Below, one piece after another: positions 1,914 through 15,412 of a DNA stretch of 64,000 nucleotides. Every line of letters starts with the position of its first letter. Position 1 is the first letter of the stretch. Source of the stretch: a virus. Under the pieces are notes generated by a model. That model had not been told where the DNA came from. It searched no databases and saw only the letters and a list, made by a program, of their open reading frames with translations. The stretch lies in IMG/VR virus record IMGVR_UViG_3300008262_002626, positions 1-64,000 of that record; one strand, written 5' to 3'. The position numbers and the translations under genes are program-made.

Positions 1914-3122
1914 ATGAAAAAGCGAAATTACACACAAGACACAGTCCGCAAGTTACAAGGCTCATTACAAATTGAGCATACATTAGCAAAACGTGGTGCT
2001 ATCAAACTACGTGAACTACTAGCAAACGAACCATACGTTAACACGCTAGGTGCATACAGTGGACAACAAGCCGTCCAACATGCCAAGGCAGGACTTAAAG
2101 CAATTTATCTATCAGGCTGGCAGGTGGCCGCAGCCGCAAACACAGCAGGACAAACATACCCAGATCAAAGTTTGTATCCTGTAAACTCAGTACCGACAAT
2201 CGTTAAGCAGATTAACAATGCTTTCCGTCGTGCTGATCAAATTGAACATTCAGAAGGCCAAGTAACTACAGATTACTTCTTACCAATCGTAGCTGATGCT
2301 GAAGCAGGCTTTGGTGGTGCATTAAACGCATATGAACTAATGATGGCCATGATTGAAGCAGGTGCAGGTGGTGTACACTTTGAAGATCAGTTATCAAGTG
2401 AAAAGAAATGTGGACACTTAGGTGGCAAGGTTTTAATCCCTACTAGTCAAGCAATACGAAATTTGCAGGCTGCACGGTTAGCCGCAGACGTAGCAGGTGT
2501 TGATACTGTTATCCTAGCACGTACAGATGCCGAGTCAGCAACGCTTATTACCAGCGACCATGATCCACTAGATAAGGATTTTATCATCAATGAACGCACT
2601 GAAGAAGGTTTCTATAAGTTCCGTAATGGATTAGATGCTTGTATTGCTCGCGGGCTTGCTTATGCTCCCTATGCAGATCTACTATGGTTTGAAACTAGTA
2701 CACCTGATATCCAACAGGCCAAGAAGTTCGCAGATGCAATCCACGCACAGTTCCCGGATCAAATGTTGGCTTACAACTGTTCTCCGTCGTTTAACTGGCG
2801 TAAGTTCTTAAGCGAAGAAGAGTGCGAAACATTTCAACATGAACTAGGAGAGCTAGGATACAAGTTCCAGTTCATTACACTAGCAGGTTTCCACTCAGTT
2901 AATCTTGCTACATTTGAACTAGCAGAAGCATACAAGGCACGTGGCATGGCTGGTTATTCAGAAATGCAACAACGTGAGTTTGCCGCACAAGAACGTGGGT
3001 TCACAACTGTTAAACATCAGCGTGAAGTTGGAGTTGGTTATTTTGACTTAATTAGTGAAGCAGTCGGTGCTACCAGTACTGTAGCAAATAAAACTTCTAC
3101 CGAAGCTGATCAGTTCCACTAA
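1914..3122 (+). CDS. aceA: Isocitrate lyase
   Basis: [11 protein letters not shown] catalytic motif, [27 protein letters not shown]. Confidence 0.97.
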
Positions 3123-3132
3123 ATAGTAGACT

Positions 3133-3855
3133 ATGTTTACTATTACTTTCTTGCAGGGTTTGCTGATAACCCTGCTACTCACACATCTTACTATTATCAG
3201 CGTAACCTTGTATCTTCATAGATCACAAGCACATCGTGGAGTAGAGTTTCATCCTTGGCTTAATCATTTTTTCCGTTTTTGGATTTGGTTAACAACAGGT
3301 ATGACTACTAAGGCATGGGTAGCAGTACACCGAAAACACCATCAAACTACAGATGTAGAAGGCGATCCACACAGTCCACATGTATTTGGAATTTGGAAAT
3401 TACTATTTGGTGGCTGGAGTTTATATCATGAAGCTACGAAGGACGCGACCTTTGTTATTAAATATGGAGCCGGAACTCCTAAAGATAAACTTGAAATATT
3501 TTATATGAAGTATCACCGGGCAGGATTCTTGTTGATGTTGGTCATAGACCTTGTTCTTTTTGGCCTGCCTGGTATTCTTATTTGGGGTGTTCAAATGATC
3601 TGGATTCCGTTCTGGGCCGCTGGCTTTATTAACGGTATTGGTCATTGGTGGGGATATCGTAACGGAGACACTAACGACTATAGTCGTAATGTTAGTCCTA
3701 TTGGTATTTTAATCGGCGGAGAAGAACTACATAACAATCATCATTTAGATCCTGCTAATCCTAAATTCAGACGTCGTTGGTTTGAATTAGATATCGGTTG
3801 GATCTATATTAAAATACTAGAAGCTTTAAGACTTGCTACCGTTAGGAGTGCATAG
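3133..3855 (+). CDS. Membrane fatty-acid (delta-9 acyl-CoA type) desaturase
   Basis: His boxes HRSQAH, HRKHH, HNNHH; TM segments. Confidence 0.92.
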   Translation: MFTITFLQGLLITLLLTHLTIISVTLYLHRSQAHRGVEFHPWLNHFFRFWIWLTTGMTTKAWVAVHRKHHQTTDVEGDPHSPHVFGIWKLLFGGWSLYHEATKDATFVIKYGAGTPKDKLEIFYMKYHRAGFLLMLVIDLVLFGLPGILIWGVQMIWIPFWAAGFINGIGHWWGYRNGDTNDYSRNVSPIGILIGGEELHNNHHLDPANPKFRRRWFELDIGWIYIKILEALRLATVRSA

Positions 3856-4552
3856 CAAGATAAACTGCCTCCGGAACACGGGTTTTAGTATTTTTACTAT
3901 TCAATAGGACAACAATGCGTTGTCCTATTTTTGTATTCACTAGCATGACGATGCAACCACCGCTGGCTCGAATCCATCCTGTTTTGCTCACAACAAAATC
4001 ATGTGTTGCAATCATTGGGTTTGTATTTCTAAATACTAAAACTTTCTTTTTCTTATGAATCTTTATTTCACTCATCTTGCTGGCTTCGACAATTTCTGTA
4101 TAATTTTCTGCGGCACGTACTAACTTTATCAGATCGTACGCTGTGCTAGAATTCATTACACCTAAACCAGTTGGATCAATAAAACGACTATCTATCATAC
4201 CCAAACTTTTTGCTTTATTATTCATAGCTGTAATACAACTTTGCCGACCGCCTGGATAATGTTTGCACAACTCTTCTGATGCACGATTATCGGAATGAAC
4301 GATAGCCAATTGAATTAGCTCTTTTCTTGTGTATGGTTTTAAAAATTCATCTAAGTCTTGTCTAGCATCTAACACAACCATGACCGTCATTAGTTTGGTT
4401 ATACTGGCAATGCTACGTTGTTGATACATGTTCTCACTTTGAATAACATGCCCGTCGGCATCTGCTACTAACCAACTAGTAGCAGTTATTTTCTCAGCCG
4501 ATGCAGAAAAAGACAGGGATGCTAACAGTAAAAAAAATATATGTTTAATCAT
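3842..4552 (-). CDS. Peptidase S11 D-Ala-D-Ala carboxy/endopeptidase (PbpG-like), secreted
   Basis: Signal peptide; SITK (SxxK), SDN (SxN), KTG motifs. Confidence 0.9.
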   Translation of the reverse strand: MIKHIFFLLLASLSFSASAEKITATSWLVADADGHVIQSENMYQQRSIASITKLMTVMVVLDARQDLDEFLKPYTRKELIQLAIVHSDNRASEELCKHYPGGRQSCITAMNNKAKSLGMIDSRFIDPTGLGVMNSSTAYDLIKLVRAAENYTEIVEASKMSEIKIHKKKKVLVFRNTNPMIATHDFVVSKTGWIRASGGCIVMLVNTKIGQRIVVLLNSKNTKTRVPEAVYLAMHS

Positions 4553-4716
4553 TATCTACAGATGCTAAAAGATTTAATGCCGTTGAGACTAAATTGACTT
4601 AGAAACTTTTCCATATCGTCGTTAACGCTAATCATTTTTGCTGGATACATAAACTTGTATTGTAGCATAAGCCATACATAATAGTCAAACCACCAGTCAA
4701 CCGGAGTATAAATCAT
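4552..4716 (-). CDS. Small hypothetical protein
   Basis: Start MIYTP overlaps the cyclase stop (ATGA); stop overlaps the PbpG start. Confidence 0.55.
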   Translation of the reverse strand: MIYTPVDWWFDYYVWLMLQYKFMYPAKMISVNDDMEKFLSQFSLNGIKSFSICR

Positions 4717-6755
4717 TTTTCGTGTGCGACAAATTCGCCATTCCAATTATCTGGAAGGTCTTGCTGTTTCATAAATTCGCAACGCTCAATCCAGATTTTG
4801 TAGTACTTGTCCATTTGTCCGCCAAATGTGCCTTTCATTTTCTTACACATTTCTGCGGCTTCGTCAAACTTCTTAGCCTTGTATAGAGATTGCATTTCGT
4901 TATACTTGACTAGGTCTTTACTCCAATCTTCACCGTTAGGTCTTAAGGCTGTATAGATTAAGTCTGCTACACTTTTGCCTTTTGGTTGTAAATTATCGAT
5001 ACACAAGTAAAAGAAATCGTCCTTGGTTCTATTGTAGGTTTCAGCACCAATAATACATAACACACCATAAGCCTTGCAACGTGCTTCTAAACGTGCGGCT
5101 GTTGAAACCATGTCACCTAAGATGTCATAACTATGTCTATCTGTGCTACCCATCTCACCAATAAAGCCTATACCTGTGTTACAACCCCAACCCATAGCCG
5201 CAGGTGGTAATCCCTGTGCTTCCATTTCTTTTGTATAAGCATCAACAGCGTCTAACATTTCAAGTCCAACAGCAACGATTGTACGAGCATGATTAGGATC
5301 TTCAATCGGAGCACCGTGTATGTGCATTGACGCATCTCCTACATACTTAATGACCATACCTTTGTTGTCCATGATTGGGCGGCTGATAGCGTCCATGTAT
5401 CCATTCATATACTTGCCTAGGCCAGCAACGTCATCACCATAGTGTTCACCAATAGGAGTAAAGCCGCGCAAGTCACTGAACATAACACTTACGTCTTTGC
5501 GCACACCACGCTTGATCAAGTCTGGATCTTTCTGTAACATCTCTACTACTTCTTTTGAGCAGTAGCCAGCAAATTGTTTTTTGATTGCCTGCTTCTGTAA
5601 GAATTCACTTACAAACTTAACCCCATAAGTATGCAGAGCGACGAGAATAAGACCAGCCGTGCTTGCCGTCGCGTCTCCCAAGATTCTGAATTCACTGAAA
5701 CCGTACCGACTAGCAACAACACAGGCAACGATCCCACTAACAGTTGTAAAAATACCGACATAGGTCCACCTCGATAATCCAATAATAATTAAACCTAATA
5801 CTAACAAGGTTAGTATTTCCGCTCCATCGGCCCAATCAGGACGTTGGATTACTACACCGTTGGCCATTGTACCGATTACAGCCGCTTGCACTTCATGTGG
5901 CCATACTGCTCCTTTTGCTGTAGGTAATGGATTTCCTATACCTGCGGCGGTTGGTCCTACAATGACTATAGCACCTTCTAAATCTTTAGGCAATTTTAGT
6001 AAACTAAAACTGCGCGACTGCTGACTCCAGTCGATCCACACACGACCTAGTTGATCTGTTGTAATAGGACCAAATTTAGGAATACGCATTTTCTCAATGC
6101 CACCCTCAAACATTTTAACTTGTACTGTTGAATCACCTGCGGCAACACGTAGAGTTTCTAGACTTAGTGATGGATAAAGTTTGCCATCTACTGTAACCAG
6201 TAACGGCATACGACGATTGACACCGTCAACCTCTGGGAGTGTATTTGTAATACCGACACCAGCGGCATTATTTTCTAATACTGGAATATTAGCAATAAGT
6301 CCAGGATACTGGACTATTTGATCTGCGAATTCTGAATTAATTACTGCTGATCCCGGAACACGTGGAGTATTCTTTGTTTTTTGTGCAGGAGTAGAACTTA
6401 AAACTACTGGTGCTTCTTTTAGAGCTTGACCCAGCGCACTGTCGCCACCTGTACGGTCTGCTTCTGGCATGAGTACATTAAGTACAACAAGGCCAGCTCC
6501 CCTCTGATATAAATCTCGTACAATTTTAGCATATTCTGCTCTTGGTAGGGGCCACTGTCCATATTTATTTAAACTCTCTTCGTCAATATTTACAGTTACA
6601 ATATTGTTAAAGGTAGGTTCTTTGGCTGTAATCAGTGTGTCAAAATAACGTAGTCTAACGCTTTCGACAAATGTAGGATCTGCAACACGTATGCCCACTA
6701 CTAACGCTAAGGTTAATAGTGCAGTCCATGGGCTTAAAAGTATTTTTTTTACCAT
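4713..6755 (-). CDS. CHASE2-domain class III adenylate/guanylate cyclase, membrane-bound
   Basis: CHASE2 (IDEESL..YGQWPLPR, DGVNRRMPL), three TM helices, cyclase motifs FSDLRGFT, KYVGDA, GDMVSTAARLE. Confidence 0.93.
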   Translation of the reverse strand: MVKKILLSPWTALLTLALVVGIRVADPTFVESVRLRYFDTLITAKEPTFNNIVTVNIDEESLNKYGQWPLPRAEYAKIVRDLYQRGAGLVVLNVLMPEADRTGGDSALGQALKEAPVVLSSTPAQKTKNTPRVPGSAVINSEFADQIVQYPGLIANIPVLENNAAGVGITNTLPEVDGVNRRMPLLVTVDGKLYPSLSLETLRVAAGDSTVQVKMFEGGIEKMRIPKFGPITTDQLGRVWIDWSQQSRSFSLLKLPKDLEGAIVIVGPTAAGIGNPLPTAKGAVWPHEVQAAVIGTMANGVVIQRPDWADGAEILTLLVLGLIIIGLSRWTYVGIFTTVSGIVACVVASRYGFSEFRILGDATASTAGLILVALHTYGVKFVSEFLQKQAIKKQFAGYCSKEVVEMLQKDPDLIKRGVRKDVSVMFSDLRGFTPIGEHYGDDVAGLGKYMNGYMDAISRPIMDNKGMVIKYVGDASMHIHGAPIEDPNHARTIVAVGLEMLDAVDAYTKEMEAQGLPPAAMGWGCNTGIGFIGEMGSTDRHSYDILGDMVSTAARLEARCKAYGVLCIIGAETYNRTKDDFFYLCIDNLQPKGKSVADLIYTALRPNGEDWSKDLVKYNEMQSLYKAKKFDEAAEMCKKMKGTFGGQMDKYYKIWIERCEFMKQQDLPDNWNGEFVAHEK

Positions 6756-6766
6756 ATAATATTTAA

Positions 6767-7063
6767 TTAAATTGAATCACTTAAAAATTTAGAATCTTGG
6801 CCCACTCCGATAATACAGGCTATTTTTGAAGTCATTTGTAATAATGTCCAGAATCCAGTCTTCTCGTTAACAAATAAAGCAAATCTAGTATCGTCTACAG
6901 GATTACGTGCAGTCCATACAGGCTTTTCATTGTAGTTTTCAGTAAGGCTTTTAATAAGAGTTTGTGTATCATCGCAAAGCACGGGTTTACGGCTTTCAAA
7001 TGGTTCGGCATTTGCTAAAGAAACAGTCAAGCTAAGTAGTAACGCTGATAGTAAAGTACGCAT
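6767..7063 (-). CDS. Small secreted protein with two Cys
   Basis: Signal peptide; AGGAG SD; TAAATA upstream. Confidence 0.7.
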   Translation of the reverse strand: MRTLLSALLLSLTVSLANAEPFESRKPVLCDDTQTLIKSLTENYNEKPVWTARNPVDDTRFALFVNEKTGFWTLLQMTSKIACIIGVGQDSKFLSDSI

Positions 7064-7085
7064 AGCATACTCCTTAAAACTATAT

Positions 7086-9224
7086 TTATTGCCTTACTAC
7101 TGTGGTGCAACCTGCAGGATTTGTACAGCTCTGTATAATATTAAATGATTTGCCGCCAGTCTGTTGTAAATCGACATTAGCGGCGCCGCCGGAGTTTGTA
7201 AGATTAATGCTGGCGTTATTAGCAGTAGATCCGCTTTGAGTAACTGTAACTGTATGCCCATTACCTGTTAGCATATTTTCTAAATAATGATTGCCTGTAC
7301 CTTCTTGTACTGCTGTTACAGAATTGTTGCTACCATTTACTGTAGTAAACATAATTTTATTTGCATTATCTTTTTGGTTAGTATTGACAATATTATTGCT
7401 ACCGGTTATAGTAGTCTCTTTAAAATTACTGCTGGTACTATTATTTGATTGTTGTGTAGTAATATTATTATAGGCACCGTTAACATCTAATTTATGATAG
7501 TTAGTTCCAGTCTGTGTTAAATTAATATTATTACTGCCGGACCCCGCGATAGTAGCTTCGGTTGTATTTTTGCCAGCTGATGTAGTCTGTGTCACAGTTA
7601 CATTGTTAGCATTTCCGCTGACCTGATCAATGTACAAATAATTGTTTGAATTTTGACTAGAACCGTTGTTCCAGTTATTAATTCTTCCTTGCTGTTGCGG
7701 TGTTGGCATAACACTGCCTGCACCACTGTTAATAACTTCTTGGCCAGTACCGTTGGTCATTGTGATTGTTCCGCCCTCAACGACTGGTCCTAGGTTAACA
7801 GTAGATCCAGTAATGTTAACCACAGAGGAATTAGAATACACAACTCCTGTTGTATCCACAGTATAGGTAGGAATAGTACCTGTAGTAAATGCACTATTAG
7901 ATATAGTTCTTAGGCCGTCGCCGTAATCCCAATAAAATGTGTTACCAAATCCGCCTTCTGTATTCCAATACCATGCTTCAATATTATATGTTTGTCCTGC
8001 TACAACATCCATCCAACCACTGCTAGTATAACCAAATATAGCCTGATATCGAACAGTTTCATTTTGATTGATGACAGTATTTCCATTTATACGTAAAACA
8101 AATCCGTCATCGGTGTTGTTGTAAAAATACAATCTGTAAACAGTTCCTGCAGGCTTTGATGAAGTTATTGGTGCTGTTATAGTTCCCGAGTATCTAATAA
8201 CTGTACCATCGTTAGATCCAAACCAACTGTTGTCGTTGTTTGGTAAATCAGAATTGGTTGCAATAAAAATGCCGTTACTAGTAACCCCACTGTTTACTGT
8301 GTTGCCATAGTCCGATATATTAGTAGACGGTGTTCTGTAAGTGAAGTTCCAAGTACATATTCCGAGGAAACAATTATAATTTTTGGGATCATATCTCCAT
8401 ACTTGAAAATTAAGACCTCGCTGTATGGTTTGAGAGGATGTTACAGCAGTACCGTTTGATTCAATAGTTGTTCCAGATACGCCTGTTGTTGTAACAGTAT
8501 TAATAGGTGTGTTAATAGTTGTTAGTGTATTTCCAACAATAGTATTAGTTGTCACTGTGCTAGATACCTTTGTCTGATATAGTGATTCTGTACCATTACT
8601 GCTTGTACTAGTTCCGTCGCTATAAGTTGTAGTAGTTACAGGTGTACGATAAACATAAGTTGTATTACCACTTGTTACTGTTCTTGTTGTATAGGTTGTA
8701 GTTGTACCTGTTACAGTAACTACTGGAGCACTAGGTTGTGCTGTTTGACCGGACGTTAAAGGTGTTGTACTTGCCCACGTATAATTAGACAAGTCGGTTG
8801 ATGATACAGAAGTATCCATATTTGGAAAGGACGCACTAGCTCCGTAACTATAACCTTGCGCTGTACTAATGACATTACCAAAAAAACCTGAACCTATATA
8901 AAATATAGCGCCATTTCCCAAAGCAGTAATATCGCCATAGTCATGAACAACTTTTGCCAAGGTTCCGTTGCTGTTATATAAACCTAATCCATATTGACCG
9001 GGATTAGTTGTACTAGGAAAGAATTGAAAATATTGTCCGCTAGATACTGTAACAGTTTGAAAGTTTTTATCATACGGTGCTATAAAATTACTGGCATATA
9101 ATGTTGTTCCACTCCAATAATACTGCACATCAAAAATTTGGTTGACGCCAAATTTACCGTCGGTGATGGCTGCAAAAGCATTTGAACACATCAGCGTGAG
9201 AAGAAATAAAATTCGTTTTATCAT
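7086..9224 (-). CDS. Secreted adhesin-like protein: Thr-rich stalk, PA14-like domain, C-terminal curlin-like repeats
   Basis: Signal peptide; YSGTITAP...TDDGFVLRING...AGQTYNIEAWY (PA14-like); N-x5-Q-x-G-x2-N repeats in the last ~190 aa. Confidence 0.75.
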   Translation of the reverse strand: MIKRILFLLTLMCSNAFAAITDGKFGVNQIFDVQYYWSGTTLYASNFIAPYDKNFQTVTVSSGQYFQFFPSTTNPGQYGLGLYNSNGTLAKVVHDYGDITALGNGAIFYIGSGFFGNVISTAQGYSYGASASFPNMDTSVSSTDLSNYTWASTTPLTSGQTAQPSAPVVTVTGTTTTYTTRTVTSGNTTYVYRTPVTTTTYSDGTSTSSNGTESLYQTKVSSTVTTNTIVGNTLTTINTPINTVTTTGVSGTTIESNGTAVTSSQTIQRGLNFQVWRYDPKNYNCFLGICTWNFTYRTPSTNISDYGNTVNSGVTSNGIFIATNSDLPNNDNSWFGSNDGTVIRYSGTITAPITSSKPAGTVYRLYFYNNTDDGFVLRINGNTVINQNETVRYQAIFGYTSSGWMDVVAGQTYNIEAWYWNTEGGFGNTFYWDYGDGLRTISNSAFTTGTIPTYTVDTTGVVYSNSSVVNITGSTVNLGPVVEGGTITMTNGTGQEVINSGAGSVMPTPQQQGRINNWNNGSSQNSNNYLYIDQVSGNANNVTVTQTTSAGKNTTEATIAGSGSNNINLTQTGTNYHKLDVNGAYNNITTQQSNNSTSSNFKETTITGSNNIVNTNQKDNANKIMFTTVNGSNNSVTAVQEGTGNHYLENMLTGNGHTVTVTQSGSTANNASINLTNSGGAANVDLQQTGGKSFNIIQSCTNPAGCTTVVRQ

Positions 9225-10330
9225 TTTTGTATTAAGGTAATAATAGTATTACCTCCCTGATTAACACGATTTTTAAATTCTAAACTACCCTGTTGTTGAT
9301 AGATTGTTGAGTTTTGTGTTAATGGAGTGGTTACGCATTGTACATCTGCACCATTATCTCTACACAAAGTTATGTTAGGGTCCTCTTTAACAACAACTAT
9401 ACCGGACGATTTTTTATAGTCCGGTAATACCGGATCAACTGGTTCTAGAAATTTTTCATCTAGTGCATTTCCTATTATGTCAAATAGGCTAGCAAGGAAC
9501 GCACTATCTAAAAAGTTTTGTTGTAATTTATTTTCATAGAAAGTATTGGCCTGCATGTCTAAGAAATTCTCAAGGCCTTTTTCTTTTAAAAAATCAAAAT
9601 CTAACGGATTAAACATCTTTTGTTGTTCTTGTACAGCACGTTTGATCTCTGCCGGAGGACTAACAATCAACAGATTACTGATAGCCATCTCACTTAGATT
9701 TAAAACTTTAGGTGGTGTAGGTGGGTGACTTCTACTAGTTACTTTAGTGACTTGGAACGGCTGATTTAATATTACTGTACCCATTTCGTTACTGACTTCA
9801 ATTGTTCCAGTTTTACAACTGGCTTCTATATCTTTCACTGTACGAGTCGGGCGATCATTTGGACAACTTGGCAATAAAACAATAGTACTAGCACCAAGTT
9901 CGTCAACTGTAGCTGTAAAGTCTGTACCTCGAACTGCTACTGTAGCAGTGGGCGTATTAAGGGCAACATTCTGTGGACTGTTTTTGGCTATTTGTCCGCT
10001 GGCATAACGAACAGTACCGAGTGCAATTTTAGCACCTAGCTTTCCACTTTTACTCTTGGGGTCATACACAAAATCGTCAATTACAAGTTTACTATTTTCG
10101 TTTACCTGTACTTTTGTATCATCTTCAAAGGTTATTCCGACTTTTCCCTGTAGAGTCTTGATAGCATCGTTCATCTCTACGCCAGTCCCTTTGGATCCCG
10201 TTAGTGTCGAATTCTGCCTGGTTATACTGGGAGGAGTATTTACTAGTTCCGTTACCTTTCCTATCGCGGCGTCGGCTTTCCACGATATACTCAGCAACGG
10301 AACGCATAGTATTACCATCCATAGTTTCAT
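9221..10330 (-). CDS. Periplasmic FecR-domain protein
   Basis: Signal peptide; IKTLQGKVGITFEDDTKVQVNENSKLVID and TPTATVAVRGTDF FecR signatures. Confidence 0.85.
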   Translation of the reverse strand: MKLWMVILCVPLLSISWKADAAIGKVTELVNTPPSITRQNSTLTGSKGTGVEMNDAIKTLQGKVGITFEDDTKVQVNENSKLVIDDFVYDPKSKSGKLGAKIALGTVRYASGQIAKNSPQNVALNTPTATVAVRGTDFTATVDELGASTIVLLPSCPNDRPTRTVKDIEASCKTGTIEVSNEMGTVILNQPFQVTKVTSRSHPPTPPKVLNLSEMAISNLLIVSPPAEIKRAVQEQQKMFNPLDFDFLKEKGLENFLDMQANTFYENKLQQNFLDSAFLASLFDIIGNALDEKFLEPVDPVLPDYKKSSGIVVVKEDPNITLCRDNGADVQCVTTPLTQNSTIYQQQGSLEFKNRVNQGGNTIITLIQK

Positions 10331-10339
10331 GCAACCCTC

Positions 10340-11314
10340 TTAGTTTTTCTGTAAAATTGTATATGTATTTCCTGATCCACTAATTGCAAGATTTGTTAAA
10401 TTACTAACAGTACCTTGCTGTGTTACACCGATAGTATTTGAACTTCCAGTTACTGCCATAGTTGTATGATGCCCTGTACCAGCACCACCTGTTTGTGATA
10501 GTGTGATACCGTTACTACTGCCGGTTACTGTTATACTAGCATAATGATCAAACAATCCAGTCTGTGTTACATCTGTAGTGTTGCCTGACCCGTTAACATT
10601 AACTATTACTTGTGCGCCGGTAGAACCGTATGCGCTCTGTGTTATGTTAGTAGTATTTGTTGCGCCAGTTGTAGTTACACTAACTTGACCCTTATTGCCA
10701 GTCATGTTAAGTGTTGTTGAATTGCCGCCACCTAGTGTATTGCTTACTGTTGCTACAGTTTCGTCTGCATTGATAGTTCCTGTGAAGCTATTGTTTGCGC
10801 CGCCTGACTGTGTAACTGATAGATTGTTACTTGTGCCTGTCATGTTTAATGTAGTAGTTGCTCCACCACCTGCTTGTGTAATACCTACTACATTTCCGCT
10901 TGCTGTGCCCAAGCCGTTGTTATTAATATTGATATAACCTGTATTTCCGCCGCCACTAACTACATAGTTTAAGTTAACACCGACATTAGCATAGCCAGAA
11001 ACTGTTCCGCCTTGTGTACTATTAACACCTAAAGATAATACGTTTGTCGCACCAGTTTGCTCAATATTGATTGTCTGTGCGTTTCCTGTTAACTTTGCTG
11101 GATCTGTAGTGCCGCCAGCATTACCGTTTGTTAAAATACCTTTTACTTTGTTTCCAGATCCGTCCTGTGTCATAGTAATAGTACTGTTATCACCCGACTG
11201 TTCTATGTAAATGCTGTTGTCAGCCGCGTGACCCAGTGTTGCCATTGCAGACAACACCAGAATAGTGAGTACTTTTCTCGACAACCCACCAGCGCCTGTT
11301 CTACTTGTTTCCAT
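10340..11314 (-). CDS. Curlin-like (CsgA/CsgB-type) amyloid repeat protein
   Basis: Signal peptide then NSIYIEQSGDNS, TQDGSGN, EQTGATN, TQSGGANN, TQQGTVSN repeats; adjacent to csgG. Confidence 0.8.
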   Translation of the reverse strand: METSRTGAGGLSRKVLTILVLSAMATLGHAADNSIYIEQSGDNSTITMTQDGSGNKVKGILTNGNAGGTTDPAKLTGNAQTINIEQTGATNVLSLGVNSTQGGTVSGYANVGVNLNYVVSGGGNTGYININNNGLGTASGNVVGITQAGGGATTTLNMTGTSNNLSVTQSGGANNSFTGTINADETVATVSNTLGGGNSTTLNMTGNKGQVSVTTTGATNTTNITQSAYGSTGAQVIVNVNGSGNTTDVTQTGLFDHYASITVTGSSNGITLSQTGGAGTGHHTTMAVTGSSNTIGVTQQGTVSNLTNLAISGSGNTYTILQKN

Positions 11315-11360
11315 TTTTTTCTGCTCCTTGGTACTTTATTATTTTTATAAGTGTACCATA

Positions 11361-12575
11361 TTATTTTACTGCGTCTTTCGCTATCCACCCTTTCTTGCCG
11401 TTCTCTAATTCAATGTATAAAAGAACACCTTCTTCTTTTACTACTTTTACTACTTGACCGGATTCAAGAACGGCAATAATTGTTGAACCCGATTTACTAC
11501 TTTCTCTTACGTTACTCTTACCCTTTGAAGTTACTGTTTTTTCTTTTGTATCTTCGACGGGCTTGTTCTCAACTTTGTTTCCTTCAGGGCCTTTTCCGTC
11601 ATTGGACTGCTGTAGTGCGGTTGCAGGCCCGGAGGTTCCTTGGGATGGCGTAACGGTTTGTGATTGAACCAACTCATCTCGTTTCTCCTCAGGTTTTTTG
11701 ATTTCTGATGAAATCACAGGTTGCTTAGATTCTTCTTTTGCCGGAACAGCTGGTGGCAATGGTGCTTGTGCTTCTTGTTGAAGTTTAAAACCCCAGATAC
11801 CTTTACGCTGTCCTTCTTTGATTAATTCAACAACTGCCATTTCTGTAGCAGCCTTAACTGCGTATGTTCCTGGCTCATTGATATTCATACCTGCTTCTGC
11901 TTCAAAAGCCTTTGTTCCAGCATCATAAAATTTTAATGCTGTTACACTATCTGCAGAACTTAAAATAGTTTTTTGTACTGTAACGCTGGCCAACACTTTG
12001 CCGGTATTTACGCTAACTGCTCGTAAACTGACAGTAACTGTGTCTGTACTCCACTGTGTTTGTTTTCCGATACCGAAAATTCGTTGTCCGATACCGCCGC
12101 TGGTCGTGCTTTGATCGTAACCAACTATGCCACCTTCAAGAATGATGCCTGCAAACTGCATCGGTAATAAAGGTCTAGCATCTTTACCCTCATATGCTTC
12201 TCTCATCTGGCGAATAATTAATCGCTCTTTAGTTAAATTATCAATACCAACACGTTCGACAACTTCAAACCATTCTCCACGTCCAACATTTTGTAGAGCT
12301 TGGATTAAGAATGTTTCTGCACCTTGCGTAACTGCGGTTGATAGGCTAGCGATATTACTCTGTGGTCTACGTTGACCTGTTTTATCTGTAAAACTGTAAA
12401 CTGCTACACTTAATGGTTTTCCGGCTTGTGGTCCGGGAATAGTGTCAAACTCTTTCTTGACTCCTTTCATTTGTGTAGTGACTTCAGGTTCTCTATCCAA
12501 TACTCCGGTTGCCTGCATCATAGCACAACCAGAAAGCATACTCAATACTGCTAGGGATAATATCGTTTTTTTCAT
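11361..12575 (-). CDS. csgG: Curli secretion channel lipoprotein CsgG with C-terminal linker and SH3b-like domain
   Basis: Lipobox LSGC; VAVYSFTDKTGQRR, STAVTQGA, FEVVERVGIDNLTKERLIIR, EGGIVGYD; C-terminal NVRE...G..V.V......YIEL.NGKKGWI. Confidence 0.92.
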   Translation of the reverse strand: MKKTILSLAVLSMLSGCAMMQATGVLDREPEVTTQMKGVKKEFDTIPGPQAGKPLSVAVYSFTDKTGQRRPQSNIASLSTAVTQGAETFLIQALQNVGRGEWFEVVERVGIDNLTKERLIIRQMREAYEGKDARPLLPMQFAGIILEGGIVGYDQSTTSGGIGQRIFGIGKQTQWSTDTVTVSLRAVSVNTGKVLASVTVQKTILSSADSVTALKFYDAGTKAFEAEAGMNINEPGTYAVKAATEMAVVELIKEGQRKGIWGFKLQQEAQAPLPPAVPAKEESKQPVISSEIKKPEEKRDELVQSQTVTPSQGTSGPATALQQSNDGKGPEGNKVENKPVEDTKEKTVTSKGKSNVRESSKSGSTIIAVLESGQVVKVVKEEGVLLYIELENGKKGWIAKDAVK

Positions 12576-12578
12576 GAT

Positions 12579-13124
12579 TTAGTTCCCTGGCATTTGGAAT
12601 GACTGTAATGGCACATAGACACAACTCATTCCAGTGTCTGTACATGCGGCCGTACTTGGATTAGTAGCAGTAGGATCTGCAATTTTCATCATTATGCAAT
12701 ATCCGTACGCAGTGGAACAGTTTGCATCATCTGCACTACTAACTCTATTCCAACTAATGAAGTTTCCTTGGAAGTCAATACTTCCAGTGCAATTTGTGTT
12801 TGTACTTGCGGTACAATTATTATTAGCAAACATAGCAGTTGCTACGTTTTGGCTAATCTGTGCATAGATACGTGATTCTAAATTACTGACAAATTTAGCT
12901 AAGTTTGTATTTTTCTTATCGGCGGCTGCTTTGTCGATTTCTGCTTGTAATTTGTCTGCACGTTCTTTTTGTCGTGTTCTTTCTTGATTTTCAATCGTTA
13001 ATACGTGACTACTATAACCAACACCATTGAAGGAAGGACTCTTAAACTGAAAGTCACCCAATGGAGCGGCTACTGCCACAACTGGCAATATGAATAACGC
13101 TATTATTTTTGGTAGTTTGGACAT
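12579..13124 (-). CDS. csgF: Curli assembly component CsgF-like
   Basis: Signal peptide; FQFKSPSFNG, LTIENQE, FVSNLESRIYAQIS; immediately upstream of csgG. Confidence 0.8.
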   Translation of the reverse strand: MSKLPKIIALFILPVVAVAAPLGDFQFKSPSFNGVGYSSHVLTIENQERTRQKERADKLQAEIDKAAADKKNTNLAKFVSNLESRIYAQISQNVATAMFANNNCTASTNTNCTGSIDFQGNFISWNRVSSADDANCSTAYGYCIMMKIADPTATNPSTAACTDTGMSCVYVPLQSFQMPGN

Positions 13125-13150
13125 TGGTTCGCTCCCGGTATCCTGTATTA

Positions 13151-13156
13151 TATTTA
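13151..13156 (-). promoter_or_regulatory. T4-late-like TAAATA promoter box heading the curli operon
   Basis: TAAATA 26 nt upstream of csgF; the same box precedes many genes in the window. Confidence 0.6.
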
Positions 13157-13187: not shown

Positions 13188-14705
13188 TTATGTTGCTATA
13201 CCTGCATTCTTTTTTACTGTATCAAGTTCGTCTGGTTCTGCAGGTTCTTGTGGAATAATTTGTGGTTGATCTTGTTGTGGTTGAACTGCTGTAGGTGTTG
13301 TATTGCTAGGTGGTAAACTTGGAGTAAGTTTAGTCTTGGCCTGCATAACTGTTAATTCTGATAATAACGGTTCCATAGTAATGGAATTCCAAATCTTTTT
13401 ATTATCACCAGTAGCATGATATCCCATCTTAACTAAACTTTTACCTGAGTTTTTATCGAAGATGTTTATTTCAGGTCTTGGCTCTCCGTTGTTACTTACA
13501 CCTTCTCTATAGGAAACAGTTAGGTCAATATTACCTGCAACTAATTTTTGCATTAGACCCTTAAAATTGTGTACTGTACTGATGCCTTTTTTTCCTAGTT
13601 GCACAAGACGAACTGTGTCATCACCTTTTGTAGCATGATGTACAATTACTGATGCTATTCGAGATATAACTCCAGCTTCGTCTCTAGCGTCAAATCCTGC
13701 TAATTGTTCTTTTAGTTGACGAGTTGCTTCTTTATAGGCCTTAGTCCAAAAGGCTACTTTAGTGGTTGGAGTCCTTTTTGGTGTATCGATAGTAACACCA
13801 AGAGGTCCGAAAAAGTTTACAGTACTTTGCCATATCCCCTTACTGCTTTTAACATCAGATGTTATTGATCCTGCGCCTTGTTGTCCAAATTGACTACTAC
13901 CTGCTTTTAAACTAATCTTGAGATTTTTCAAAGGTCTAACTTCACCGTTGGCTGTTCTCACAAACGCTTCGATGTCTGTCTTTTTGCCTTTTTGATCACT
14001 CATTCCGTCGCTTTGGACCCAGATAGCATCAACCTTTCCATTCTTATAAAAGTAGTCTGCGTATTTGTCTATCTGTCCGCTATTAGCATAATGAACAGCA
14101 CTAGGTAACAAGGGACTATATGTTTCCCAGAAACTAGGAGACTGCATAAACACTTTTGTAGGTTCACGGACTGCTACTGTAAATTTAATAATGTCAGCAA
14201 TTTTACTATTCTTATCAGCTACTGTATATGTACTATTTCCTTGGCTGATTGCTTTATTAAGACAATCAATCACGTCTTTATCTGTAATGTCTTCTATACT
14301 ATTGCTACCGCGCTTGATTAGTTTAGCCACGACAGCCGCACTTAAAACAGGCTCTGAGAGATCTCCTACATTCCCTTCTGTACTGCCTTTTTGTCCTGGG
14401 GCATGTACTAGACCGCTTTGTATGCTATTATCGGTTCCAACAATATCTATGTATGTTTTATTTGGACGTTTGAAACTTCTAACAACGCTGCCAGTCCCAA
14501 ATTGTATTTTAGGAGTTCTTGCAGGAGAACTTTTAATCCATTCTAAATCTTCGCTGGGATCAAAATCAGGTACTATCTTTTTAATAGCAGTTAATAGGGA
14601 CTTGCCCTTCGCTGACGATGCTCCTACACGAACTTTGTGTCCGTAGGAATACTTGTCTTTTCTGGTAAAAATGCTGGCTTCGCCGATAATTTCAAAGGTC
14701 TTCAT
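13188..14705 (-). CDS. Late protein with capsid-targeting-like N-terminus; possible PD-(D/E)XK-type nuclease
   Basis: Start MKTFEIIGE 5 nt after TAAATA; KTDI...KISLK motif. Confidence 0.55.
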   Translation of the reverse strand: MKTFEIIGEASIFTRKDKYSYGHKVRVGASSAKGKSLLTAIKKIVPDFDPSEDLEWIKSSPARTPKIQFGTGSVVRSFKRPNKTYIDIVGTDNSIQSGLVHAPGQKGSTEGNVGDLSEPVLSAAVVAKLIKRGSNSIEDITDKDVIDCLNKAISQGNSTYTVADKNSKIADIIKFTVAVREPTKVFMQSPSFWETYSPLLPSAVHYANSGQIDKYADYFYKNGKVDAIWVQSDGMSDQKGKKTDIEAFVRTANGEVRPLKNLKISLKAGSSQFGQQGAGSITSDVKSSKGIWQSTVNFFGPLGVTIDTPKRTPTTKVAFWTKAYKEATRQLKEQLAGFDARDEAGVISRIASVIVHHATKGDDTVRLVQLGKKGISTVHNFKGLMQKLVAGNIDLTVSYREGVSNNGEPRPEINIFDKNSGKSLVKMGYHATGDNKKIWNSITMEPLLSELTVMQAKTKLTPSLPPSNTTPTAVQPQQDQPQIIPQEPAEPDELDTVKKNAGIAT

Positions 14706-14713
14706 ACGAATAT

Positions 14714-15412
14714 TTATCGTATTTCTGGGAACAGACAATCCTGGATAAAAACACGTACATCTTCCTCGTCTAAACCTAAACTTGTCATAACACGGGGTGT
14801 ATGGGGGTTTTGTTTTTGATTTTGTGCGTAATAGTTCTGTTCAAAAGTAGTGTCTGCAACCATATTATTAGTTTGACCCACAGTTTCTAGGTAGTGTTCA
14901 ATACCCTTTTCAGCCATAGCAAATATCTGATCTAGTTCTGTTTCATCTTGCACATTGCCTGCGGCAACCATGCTAGGACTAAAAATACGTTTTGCCCAAT
15001 CAGGAAGCTCACGTTCTCTGCGCCATTCTAGTTTCGATGCTTCATTAGCGAACCAATCACACATAGGATGTTCTTTATCAGAGGTAGGACTATAATCGTA
15101 AAAACAGCCAGTGATCTTACGAGCACCGGCAATAACATCAAAACCAAATATAGGAGCAGGATTGTGTATATGTGGGAAGATGCAACAGTGCATCATCCAC
15201 AGTCCTTTTGTTTCTCGGGCATCTACTACATCAACGTGGGCTCTTCGATAATTACCTGATGACCATACACGATTAACCCATCCTGGTTGATTAAATCGAT
15301 TCATTCCAGGTTCGAATACTTCTATTCCAGTATCGTTAAATGATTTTTCTAAGAGATGCTGGATACTGATCAATGTATCCCAAACTTTACTCTGCTGGTT
15401 GTTCAACATCAA
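14714..15412 (-). CDS. Ferredoxin-dependent bilin reductase (PcyX/PcyA family)
   Basis: RRAHVDVVD, MMHCCIFP, PIFGFDVIAG, LPDWAKRIFS, QKQNPHT; next to heme oxygenase. Confidence 0.85.
   Translation of the reverse strand: MMLNNQQSKVWDTLISIQHLLEKSFNDTGIEVFEPGMNRFNQPGWVNRVWSSGNYRRAHVDVVDARETKGLWMMHCCIFPHIHNPAPIFGFDVIAGARKITGCFYDYSPTSDKEHPMCDWFANEASKLEWRRERELPDWAKRIFSPSMVAAGNVQDETELDQIFAMAEKGIEHYLETVGQTNNMVADTTFEQNYYAQNQKQNPHTPRVMTSLGLDEEDVRVFIQDCLFPEIR

Follow-up and report, generated by a model that had tools for sequence, protein, structure and literature searches.

We analysed a 64,000-nucleotide stretch of viral DNA (positions 1 to 64,000 of IMG/VR record IMGVR_UViG_3300008262_002626, hereafter the window), which is part of a 91-kb virus record. 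It was found to carry a block of nine open reading frames (ORFs) encoding a phage curli-type secretion system, a secreted FecR-domain protein and a membrane sensor cyclase with a CHASE2 domain. The block lies at positions 3842-13156 with all nine ORFs on the minus strand and intergenic gaps of -34 to +46 nt. Its membership in the published viral region that combines a type VIII secretion system (T8SS), FecR and an adenylate cyclase is close to certain. As a whole, we read the block as a late system for curli-type secretion and fibres, in which one subunit has a lectin head and a FecR/CHASE2 envelope sensor makes cyclic AMP (cAMP), a reading to which we give a probability of about 0.5. The gene assignments are solid, and every functional step is one that we infer from them. 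An earlier note on this DNA had described the same co-directional, tightly packed cluster of nine genes; all ORFs were found where it had placed them, and the gene identities were upheld, including that of the PA14/curlin adhesin. Phage hallmarks elsewhere in the window are ribonucleotide reductase genes, genes for structural proteins of the virion and one for a baseplate hub that includes a lysozyme domain.

The core of the block was not as new as the earlier note had supposed, as the order csgF-csgG-curlin-FecR-curlin-cyclase has already been published with the same candidate uses (PMC9599517, PMC7029224, PMC9004378). Megablast of the region against GenBank phages gave no match, and relatives surfaced by protein-level search. 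This search placed the cyclase in Melnitz, a phage of OM43 (45% identity), and in HTVC008M, a phage of SAR11 (35%); in both, the annotated order is CsgF, CsgG, a curlin-associated protein, a FecR-domain or hypothetical protein, a second curlin-type protein and the cyclase. Wittmers et al. (2022) described the csgF-csgG-csgA/B-FecR-csgA/B-adenylate cyclase block of pelagiphages as the viral T8SS region; CsgC, D and E were lacking, an alphaproteobacterial origin was argued, and aggregation, superinfection exclusion and import were discussed (PMC9599517). A curli cluster was reported in pelagimyophages by Zaragoza-Solas et al. (2020), who proposed "sibling capture" and whose freshwater SAR11 myophages were without a curli operon (PMC7029224). 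The habitat and lineage of the window extend the published range of the viral curli block. New here are the freshwater giant lineage, the common fusion of CsgG to a bacterial SH3 (SH3b) domain, a lectin-type head with shuffled N-terminal domains, and an S11 peptidase that often follows the cyclase. Also new are two units marked by TAAATA boxes, a Ser in place of a catalytic Asn in 80 of 81 cyclases, FecR that co-varies with the csg genes, and a chromosomal six-gene block in Caulobacteraceae.

A close relative of the cyclase is encoded by 270 IMG/VR contigs, of which 80 were fetched; locus counts are given out of 82. Of the 64 loci in which 6.5 kb or more of sequence was available upstream of the cyclase, 63 carried both csgG and FecR. 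The synteny check proposed in the earlier note has thus been run, with csgG and FecR beside the cyclase in these phage loci and the same order in Melnitz, HTVC008M and a Caulobacteraceae locus. A handful of shorter loci had the cyclase, often with the peptidase, without nearby csg genes. Three relatives are CheckV-complete at 357-364 kb (G001, G002 and G003, the records of loci L015, L067 and L072), which assigns the window to a giant-phage lineage and makes the 91-kb record about a quarter of the genome. Near-identical copies of the stretch came from lake, pond and freshwater metagenomes in a dozen studies.

The secretion proteins open the block. CsgF (12579-13124, minus strand; 181 aa, signal peptide) matched Pfam CsgF above the cut-off (E 2.6e-7, 31.3 bits) and phrog_35372 (E 5e-40), and its N-terminal FQFKSPSF motif is conserved; a sequence search of solved structures with it returned chance matches only. 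CsgG (11361-12575, minus strand) is encoded as a lipoprotein with a C-terminal bacterial SH3 domain (Pfam CsgG E 3e-46, SH3_3 E 3.7e-7). The lipoprotein part, with lipobox LSGC, spans residues 1-270 and is followed by about 90 aa of low-complexity linker and the SH3 domain at 355-403. It aligns with E. coli CsgG 3x2r (E 4e-41), but where the E. coli constriction has Y51/N55/F56 the phage protein has Q/S/L and one inserted residue (phage residues ~65-80), which may give the pore a different selectivity. The third gene encodes a curlin-repeat protein (10340-11314, minus strand; 324 aa, signal peptide) that is presumed to be the major fibre subunit. It has a single Curlin_rpt match above the cut-off (E 1e-6) and weak NCBIfam matches to CsgB and CsgA, and repeats of the type Q-x-G-x-x-N-x-hydrophobic-x-hydrophobic-x-Q are visible in the sequence. 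No match to CsgE (PF10627), CsgC (PF10610) or the GerE/CsgD type (PF00196) was found in the 91-kb record, itself a fragment, so the absence of csgE, csgC and csgD that had been claimed for the window extends to the whole record. Signal-peptide-like N-termini were read from the sequences of seven products: CsgF, CsgG, the curlin, FecR, the 712-aa adhesin-like protein, a 98-aa protein and the S11 peptidase.

Several parts of the block suggest a role at the cell wall. Peptidoglycan is the typical ligand of bacterial SH3 domains, and in this lineage a C-terminal extension is present on 32 of 54 unique CsgG orthologues, with an SH3 score in 25 of the 35 long forms. The CsgG-SH3b fusion is also common among metagenomic relatives, whereas CsgG of Melnitz and HTVC008M is without it. 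At the other end of the block lies a secreted, PbpG/PBP7-like S11 DD-peptidase (3842-4552, minus strand; 236 aa; Pfam Peptidase_S11 E 1e-38) with the active-site motifs SxxK (SITK), SxN (SDN) and KTG. It matched the NCBIfam D-alanyl-D-alanine endopeptidase model PRK11669 (E 5e-49, 167 bits, under the equivalog cut-off of 294). The peptidase occurs in 41 of 82 cyclase loci, mostly directly after the cyclase. Together with the LysM domain on bacterial FecR partners, the SH3b domain and the PbpG-like DD-endopeptidase point to a cell-wall link.

These genes also bear on a reading in which CsgG and CsgF form a pore that permeabilises the outer membrane to time lysis, or serves uptake, with no fibres made and the curlin-like proteins accessory or vestigial. 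A pore or lysis-timing role was proposed for Melnitz by Buchholz et al. (2022), and a pore has likewise been proposed for pelagimyophages (PMC9004378, PMC7029224). Three features of the window would suit a pore, namely the lack of a gene for a CsgE gate, the altered constriction residues and the cell-wall peptidase linked to the module. Nevertheless we consider this reading improbable, because two curlin-repeat proteins with signal peptides are present in nearly all loci (60 and 54 of 82) and the second of them has a well-folded lectin-type head and a beta-helix that make sense only if the protein is exported and displayed. In addition CsgF has been retained; according to Zaragoza-Solas et al. 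it is not needed for CsgG assembly (PMC7029224).

The second curlin-type protein (7086-9224, minus strand; 712 aa) is a modular, secreted, adhesin-like protein. It had no Pfam match over its whole length and was characterised with AlphaFold and fold search; Pfam on its parts gave PA14 at E 0.0014 (18.8 bits, cut-off 24) and Curlin_rpt, also sub-threshold, and a sequence search of solved structures gave nothing useful. The AlphaFold model, built on 20 relatives with a mean predicted local distance difference test score (pLDDT) of 68.5, consists of a beta N-domain (19-170), a Thr/Ser-rich beta region (170-260), a PA14 fold (~263-460) and a curlin-type beta-helix (508-712). With VIA-align, residues 263-460 superposed on PA14 domains with an overall Z of 10-13.7 and 137-170 residues aligned: clostridial RsgI sensors (Z 13.7), the yeast Flo, Epa and Cea adhesins (Z 10-13), anthrax protective antigen (Z 11) and the sugar-binding domain of the Marinomonas ice adhesin MpIBP (Z 11.6, 151 residues). 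Foldseek gave a probability of 1.00 to the MpIBP, Flo and Epa PA14 domains, and residues 508-712 superposed on the SufD beta-helix (Z 16.1). The label PA14/curlin adhesin given in the earlier note is therefore right at the level of the modelled fold. Among the orthologues the N-terminal domains are swapped and the curlin-type C-terminus is kept, a pattern that would be expected of a displayed, diversifying adhesin. Residues 19-170 are 71-94% identical in five relatives with otherwise differing domains, including proteins of 1098-1164 aa with a different C-terminus.

Such domain shuffling also resembles that of receptor-binding proteins, and the curlin-like and PA14 proteins could then be virion parts, fibres or decoration, in a block that is structural and not a secretion system. 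The late-type promoter boxes described below and the baseplate genes adjoining the block in Melnitz and HTVC008M would agree with this. However, all these proteins carry Sec-type signal peptides and CsgG has a lipobox, whereas virions assemble in the cytoplasm, and a homologous block stands in a bacterial chromosome context. We regard a virion role as extremely improbable.

The cyclase (4713-6755, minus strand; 680 aa; Pfam CHASE2 E 6.5e-42, Guanylate_cyc E 1.7e-14) has one transmembrane (TM) segment, a periplasmic CHASE2 domain (15-323), three further TM segments, a class III catalytic domain (420-589) and a helical tail of about 80 aa. Hydrophobic segments were read at 5-27 and 307-378, and the 1+3 TM topology places catalysis in the cytoplasm. 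The best solved relatives are the CyaB structures 3r5g and 2w01. Of the metal-binding residues, Asp428 is present in all 81 sequences, and Asp474 is missing from only one, which has a gap there (80 of 81). In class III cyclases a Lys-Asp pair specifies adenine. The earlier note had taken the Lys in KYVGD and the Asp in SYDIL to favour ATP, and both are present: Lys470 is invariant (81/81) and Asp544 occurs in 80 of 81 sequences, which supports ATP as the substrate. Lys592/594 are invariant as well, and so is Arg555, the Arg of the transition-state Asn-Arg pair. The Asn of this pair is replaced by Ser551 in 80 of 81 sequences and is found only in HTVC008M, whose enzyme in turn has a Ser at the position of the adenine-specifying Asp. 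No part of the module is more conserved than the catalytic domain, which has a mean pairwise distance of 0.13 as compared to 0.39-0.67 for the exported proteins. This strong conservation argues for an active cyclase, perhaps with altered kinetics.

PADLOC detected in the module only a generic similarity to PycC, the Pycsar cyclase (47.9 bits), a score that reflects the shared fold. This similarity, the exchange of the conserved Asn for Ser and the lack of a cAMP receptor among the genes searched could suggest that the cyclase makes another nucleotide, or that, independently of curli, it takes part in a phage-host defence conflict, for instance by supplying a cyclic nucleotide that interferes or acts as a decoy. 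Such a role seems very unlikely to us: the adenine-specifying Lys-Asp pair is conserved, Pfam Guanylate_cyc and solved adenylate cyclases outscore PycC, and the CHASE2 architecture with a FecR neighbour matches bacterial signalling pairs.

TAAATA is the core of the T4-type late promoter. All three boxes that had been listed in the earlier note, at 13151, 7083 and 6760, were located on the minus strand. The box at 13151-13156 lies 26 nt upstream of the csgF start, that at 7083-7088 lies 19 nt upstream of the 98-aa gene and that at 6760-6765 lies 4 nt upstream of the cyclase ATG. Within the window, TAAATA was found 5-45 nt upstream of 20 of 96 genes, as compared to 8 of 470 intragenic control windows. 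The csgF box was present in 46 of 53 distinct upstream regions of relatives, mostly 26-27 nt from the start, and the box of the 98-aa gene in 7 of the 11 relatives having the gene. For the cyclase it was found in 35 of the 62 distinct upstream regions of relatives, in 20 of them exactly 4 nt from the ATG. The csgG, curlin, FecR and adhesin genes of the relatives almost never had TAAATA upstream. On these sequence features the module reads as two T4-late-type units, one with csgF, csgG-SH3, the curlin, FecR and the PA14-curlin gene, and the other with the 98-aa gene, the cyclase, a small ORF and the S11 peptidase. Window-wide, eleven TAAATA boxes (e.g. 3120 and 6765) stand just 4-7 nt before ORFs of at least 50 codons. 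A spacing of this kind suggests leaderless late mRNAs, and the cyclase box would give one of these. Scans of the region for terminators and sigma-70 promoters were not usefully above chance. The best sigma-70-like match on the module strand (4659-4688, minus; TTGACT, 18 nt, TACAAT, extended -10 TG) sits inside the 64-aa ORF of the block, upstream of the S11 gene, in a scan that overall did not exceed chance.

The FecR-domain protein (9221-10330, minus strand; 369 aa, secreted; Pfam FecR E 1e-8, phrog_37870 E 7e-123) gave nothing useful in a sequence search of solved structures. In the AlphaFold model it has an N-terminal beta domain (20-210, pLDDT 80-89), a low-confidence helical linker (210-300) and a six-strand C-terminal region (311-368), and the protein ends in the curlin-like GGNTIITLIQK. 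With VIA-align the N-domain superposed on the C-terminal cell-surface signalling domain (CCSSD) of PupR (6ovk_R; Z 15.3, root-mean-square deviation 2.9 A, 136 residues) and on the Bacteroidales anti-sigma factor 4m0h (Z 14.1). Residues 20-92 also superposed on 5ix9 (Z 10.5, root-mean-square deviation 2.2 A, 24% identity, 72 of 76 residues), which is the Marinomonas ice adhesin's retention module and was the template for the LapA plug, by which that adhesin stays threaded through its outer-membrane pore.

All csg-linked FecR proteins, viral or bacterial, end in a Gly-rich turn and an alternating hydrophobic strand resembling curlin ends, and most cassette types have a Gln near the C-terminus. 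The FecR tail aligned to the curlin profile with an hhalign P of 0.0016 (controls 0.32 and 0.013). With a hidden Markov model (HMM) of curlin tails, 37 of 53 FecR tails scored above the 95th percentile of 988 background tails, a rate equal to that of true second curlins; 20 of 50 CsgF tails were also above background. A co-variation of the FecR C-terminal strand with the curlin C-terminus of the same cassette was not supported (12 cassette types, matched 23.1, mismatched 21.9, permutation p 0.21). What is left is a weak curlin-like character of the FecR tail in general.

Distance matrices from 58 cassettes showed joint divergence of CsgF, CsgG, the curlin and the two FecR halves (Spearman 0.67-0.87), with rho 0.73-0.87 for FecR against CsgF, CsgG and the curlin. 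The CHASE2 domain correlated weakly with the secretion-cassette proteins (0.24-0.45) and with FecR (0.24-0.31). In locus L047 the cyclase is 92% identical and CsgG and FecR 42-45%. By inheritance, FecR would thus belong to the secretion cassette, and probably by transcription also.

In the main rival explanation FecR itself belongs to the secretion machinery, as a plug, a tether or a nucleator, and is not primarily a sensor for the cyclase, which would be a neighbouring sensor that may or may not touch it. The N-domain would act as a periplasmic plug or retention module under CsgG, the linker would thread the pore, and the curlin-like C-terminus would nucleate or anchor the fibre, so that FecR would replace the missing CsgE and CsgB. 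The place of FecR in the csgF promoter unit and its co-variation with CsgF, CsgG and the curlin agree with this, as does its presence in all viral curli clusters, where the cyclase is only frequent (Wittmers et al., 2022; PMC9599517). So do the retention-module superposition, the tail that resembles those of curlins in phages and in Caulobacteraceae, and a bacterial relative that joins the same N-domain to RTX repeats. On the other hand the tail similarity is weak, the co-variation within loci was not significant, CsgF tails score above background too, the C-terminal part of the FecR model has a pLDDT of 50-75, and the retention-module match overlaps the FecR fold itself. Furthermore, FecR stands next to CHASE2 genes in bacteria without csg genes, which indicates that FecR does partner with CHASE2. 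Taken together, we find the structural explanation unlikely. The modelled leads fit an N-domain that would stay periplasmic while the C-terminus is exported, and they are not proof of it.

The relative with RTX repeats is a Minwuia protein of 1218 aa (L093, 7001-10657) with the same FecR-type N-domain and nine RTX nonapeptide repeat matches; its gene lies among metabolic genes, with no secretion or CHASE2 genes adjoining.

The interpretation in the earlier note was partly sustained, with its coupling of FecR to the cyclase still putative. Adjacency of FecR and CHASE2 genes in bacteria speaks for it, but FecR follows the csg genes in its divergence and CHASE2 only weakly, and it lies in the csgF unit, whereas the cyclase has its own box and sometimes stands without adjacent csg genes. 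A combination of both ideas, to which we attach only a small probability, would make FecR a trans-outer-membrane tether, with its N-domain under CsgG touching CHASE2 and its curlin-like C-terminus in the fibre, so that fibre load or pore occupancy is turned into cAMP. If true, the tether would be an amyloid-coupled outside-in sensor installed by the phage on its host, perhaps timing lysis or sensing neighbours.

For bacterial counterparts, 185,579 species genomes were scanned with the FecR alignment, followed by HMM searches of the loci. Two contigs of Caulobacteraceae metagenome-assembled genomes (MAGs; L088 and L089, GC 54-57%) carry CsgF, CsgG, two curlins, FecR and the CHASE2 cyclase in one uninterrupted run, with ordinary bacterial genes on the flanks (acyl-CoA dehydrogenase, methylmalonyl-CoA mutase, TetR and amidohydrolase). 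In L088 the block lies at 5794-13103; the curlin-like tail motif is also present in the Caulobacteraceae FecR. A Metallophos calcineurin-like phosphoesterase is encoded about 430 nt upstream of the Caulobacteraceae block, a family that includes the cAMP phosphodiesterase CpdA. Low-GC MAG contigs with the whole block (L084-L087 and L091) are probably misbinned phage and were excluded from the bacterial count.

In diverse bacteria a FecR-domain gene lies beside a gene for a CHASE2 cyclase or for a CHASE2-PAS-kinase-receiver protein, without csg genes. The bacterial FecR and CHASE2 pairing invoked in the earlier note is thus found as adjacency, with cyclase or kinase outputs, and the BiofilmReg operon of Burkholderia pairs a LysM-FecR protein with a CHASE2 kinase (PMC5192318). 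A further FecR and CHASE2 pair is smc02177 with cyaD1 in S. meliloti (PMC5498481). A tested precedent from the same species is the outer-membrane protein NsrA, which relays a protein signal to CHASE2 cyclases, from which cAMP passes to the regulator Clr (PMC13001267). No bacterial study reporting direct FecR-CHASE2 contact was found. By analogy, a FecR and CHASE2 sensor pair is reasonable and is suggested by gene neighbourhood.

Put together, the secretion and sensor reading would run as follows. Late in infection the products would be exported by Sec, and CsgG, tethered to peptidoglycan through its SH3b domain, would form an outer-membrane channel with CsgF. The channel would export the curlin and the lectin-headed curlin protein, and from these an adhesive fibre of beta-solenoid type may form on the infected cell, leading to aggregation, adhesion or exclusion of other phages. 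The secreted FecR-fold protein and the CHASE2 cyclase would sense the envelope as a pair, which also seems to be the role of their relatives in bacteria, with the cyclase turning the state of the secretion apparatus or of the cell surface into cAMP from ATP. A host factor would read the cAMP, and the S11 DD-endopeptidase would remodel the cell wall locally.

Several observations weigh against this scheme. None of the public RNA runs listed contained the stretch, so that the case for late expression consists of promoter-like motifs, and cells infected with Melnitz showed no clumping (Buchholz et al., 2022; PMC9004378). Neither a CsgE-like gate nor a CsgB-like nucleator was identified, and the CsgG constriction residues are unlike those of E. 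coli. The exchange of the conserved Asn for Ser551 may make the activity of the cyclase low or altered. No cyclic nucleotide-binding domain was found in the 91-kb record or in five relatives, three of them complete; with no recognisable cAMP receptor in the phage, any cAMP needs a host receptor or an unrecognised one. Finally, the test for co-evolution of FecR and CHASE2 gave a low correlation (0.24-0.31), with no support for a co-evolving interface. Recombination at the hypervariable adhesin gene, or linkage, could yield such a low correlation, and the test is suggestive only, neither proving nor excluding contact.

Two small ORFs complete the block. The 98-aa protein (6767-7063, minus strand), read from its sequence as a small secreted protein with a signal peptide and two Cys, had no Pfam, PHROG or NCBIfam match, its relatives in the ESM Atlas were viral clusters only, and it was found in 13 of 82 loci. 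The other ORF (4552-4746, minus strand; 64 aa with a TTG start, 54 aa if read from the first Met) overlaps the 3' end of the cyclase gene and is of uncertain status. It likewise had no Pfam, PHROG or NCBIfam match, and by tblastn it was present in 20 of 82 loci at 41-81% identity. Directly upstream of csgF a 516-aa protein (phrog_3560) is encoded at 13188-14738; as only 3 of 82 related loci have it, it is not part of the module. The flanks of the module (1914-3855 and 14714-15412) hold auxiliary metabolic genes for isocitrate lyase, fatty-acid desaturase and ferredoxin-dependent bilin reductase.

Since the core is already in the literature, the block opens no new question alone and its value is comparative. 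It bears on the purpose of curli in phages and of the cAMP that phages make. Beyond the marine phages of SAR11 and OM43, the block abounds in giant freshwater phages, where it has diversified greatly, and a Caulobacteraceae genome has it complete. The parts added in the lake version, SH3b on the pore, a DD-endopeptidase and a lectin-type head on the curlin anchor, point to the cell envelope. Experiments can be narrowed by the division between a fast-evolving cassette of secretion, fibre and FecR proteins and a conserved, separately promoted cyclase, by the Asn to Ser exchange and by the complete relatives without a cAMP receptor.

Compared with known systems, the bacterial FecR and CHASE2 pairs likewise combine a gene for a secreted FecR-domain protein with a neighbouring gene for a CHASE2 sensor of 1+3 TM topology, whose output domain is cytoplasmic. 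In bacteria the FecR partners have LysM, RTX or long unknown regions, whereas the FecR of the window has a curlin-like tail, and the pathways lead to a receptor that is known, Clr or a response regulator, while none was recognised in the phage. With the FecR/PupR anti-sigma regulators the window protein shares the fold of the PupR CCSSD, but it has no cytoplasmic anti-sigma domain and no TM helix, and its FecR fold follows directly after a cleavable signal peptide. The LapA/MpIBP-type RTX adhesins offer a structural likeness only: their retention module resembles FecR residues 20-92 and their PA14 domain resembles that of the 712-aa protein. In the window these two features are on separate proteins, RTX repeats are absent, and export would use Sec and CsgG instead of a type I secretion system.

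With the curli of E. coli and Salmonella (csgBAC-csgDEFG) the window shares a CsgG lipoprotein as predicted channel, the N-terminal motif of CsgF and curlin-repeat proteins as presumed secreted subunits. In comparison, it is without CsgE, CsgC, CsgD and a recognisable CsgB, its constriction is changed, and FecR and the cyclase are added. The nearest cellular version of the block is alphaproteobacterial (PMC9599517).

The closest system is the viral T8SS region of HTVC008M (KC465899, 7562-13807) and Melnitz (MZ577097, 50731-56876). Its gene order is the same and csgE, csgC and csgD are lacking in both; the cyclase, CsgG and FecR are 35-45% identical to those of the window, and the candidate functions are alike. 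In the podophage form of the region a histidine kinase precedes csgF. No histidine kinase (HATPase_c) was found in the 91-kb record, and the gene is not a feature of the myophage form. The block of Melnitz and HTVC008M adjoins baseplate genes, whereas that of the window adjoins auxiliary metabolic genes. The window differs further in its freshwater lineage with genomes of about 360 kb, in the fusion of CsgG to SH3b, in a second curlin enlarged to 712 aa by a PA14 fold and a further N-domain, and in the addition of the 98-aa secreted protein, the small ORF and the S11 DD-peptidase.

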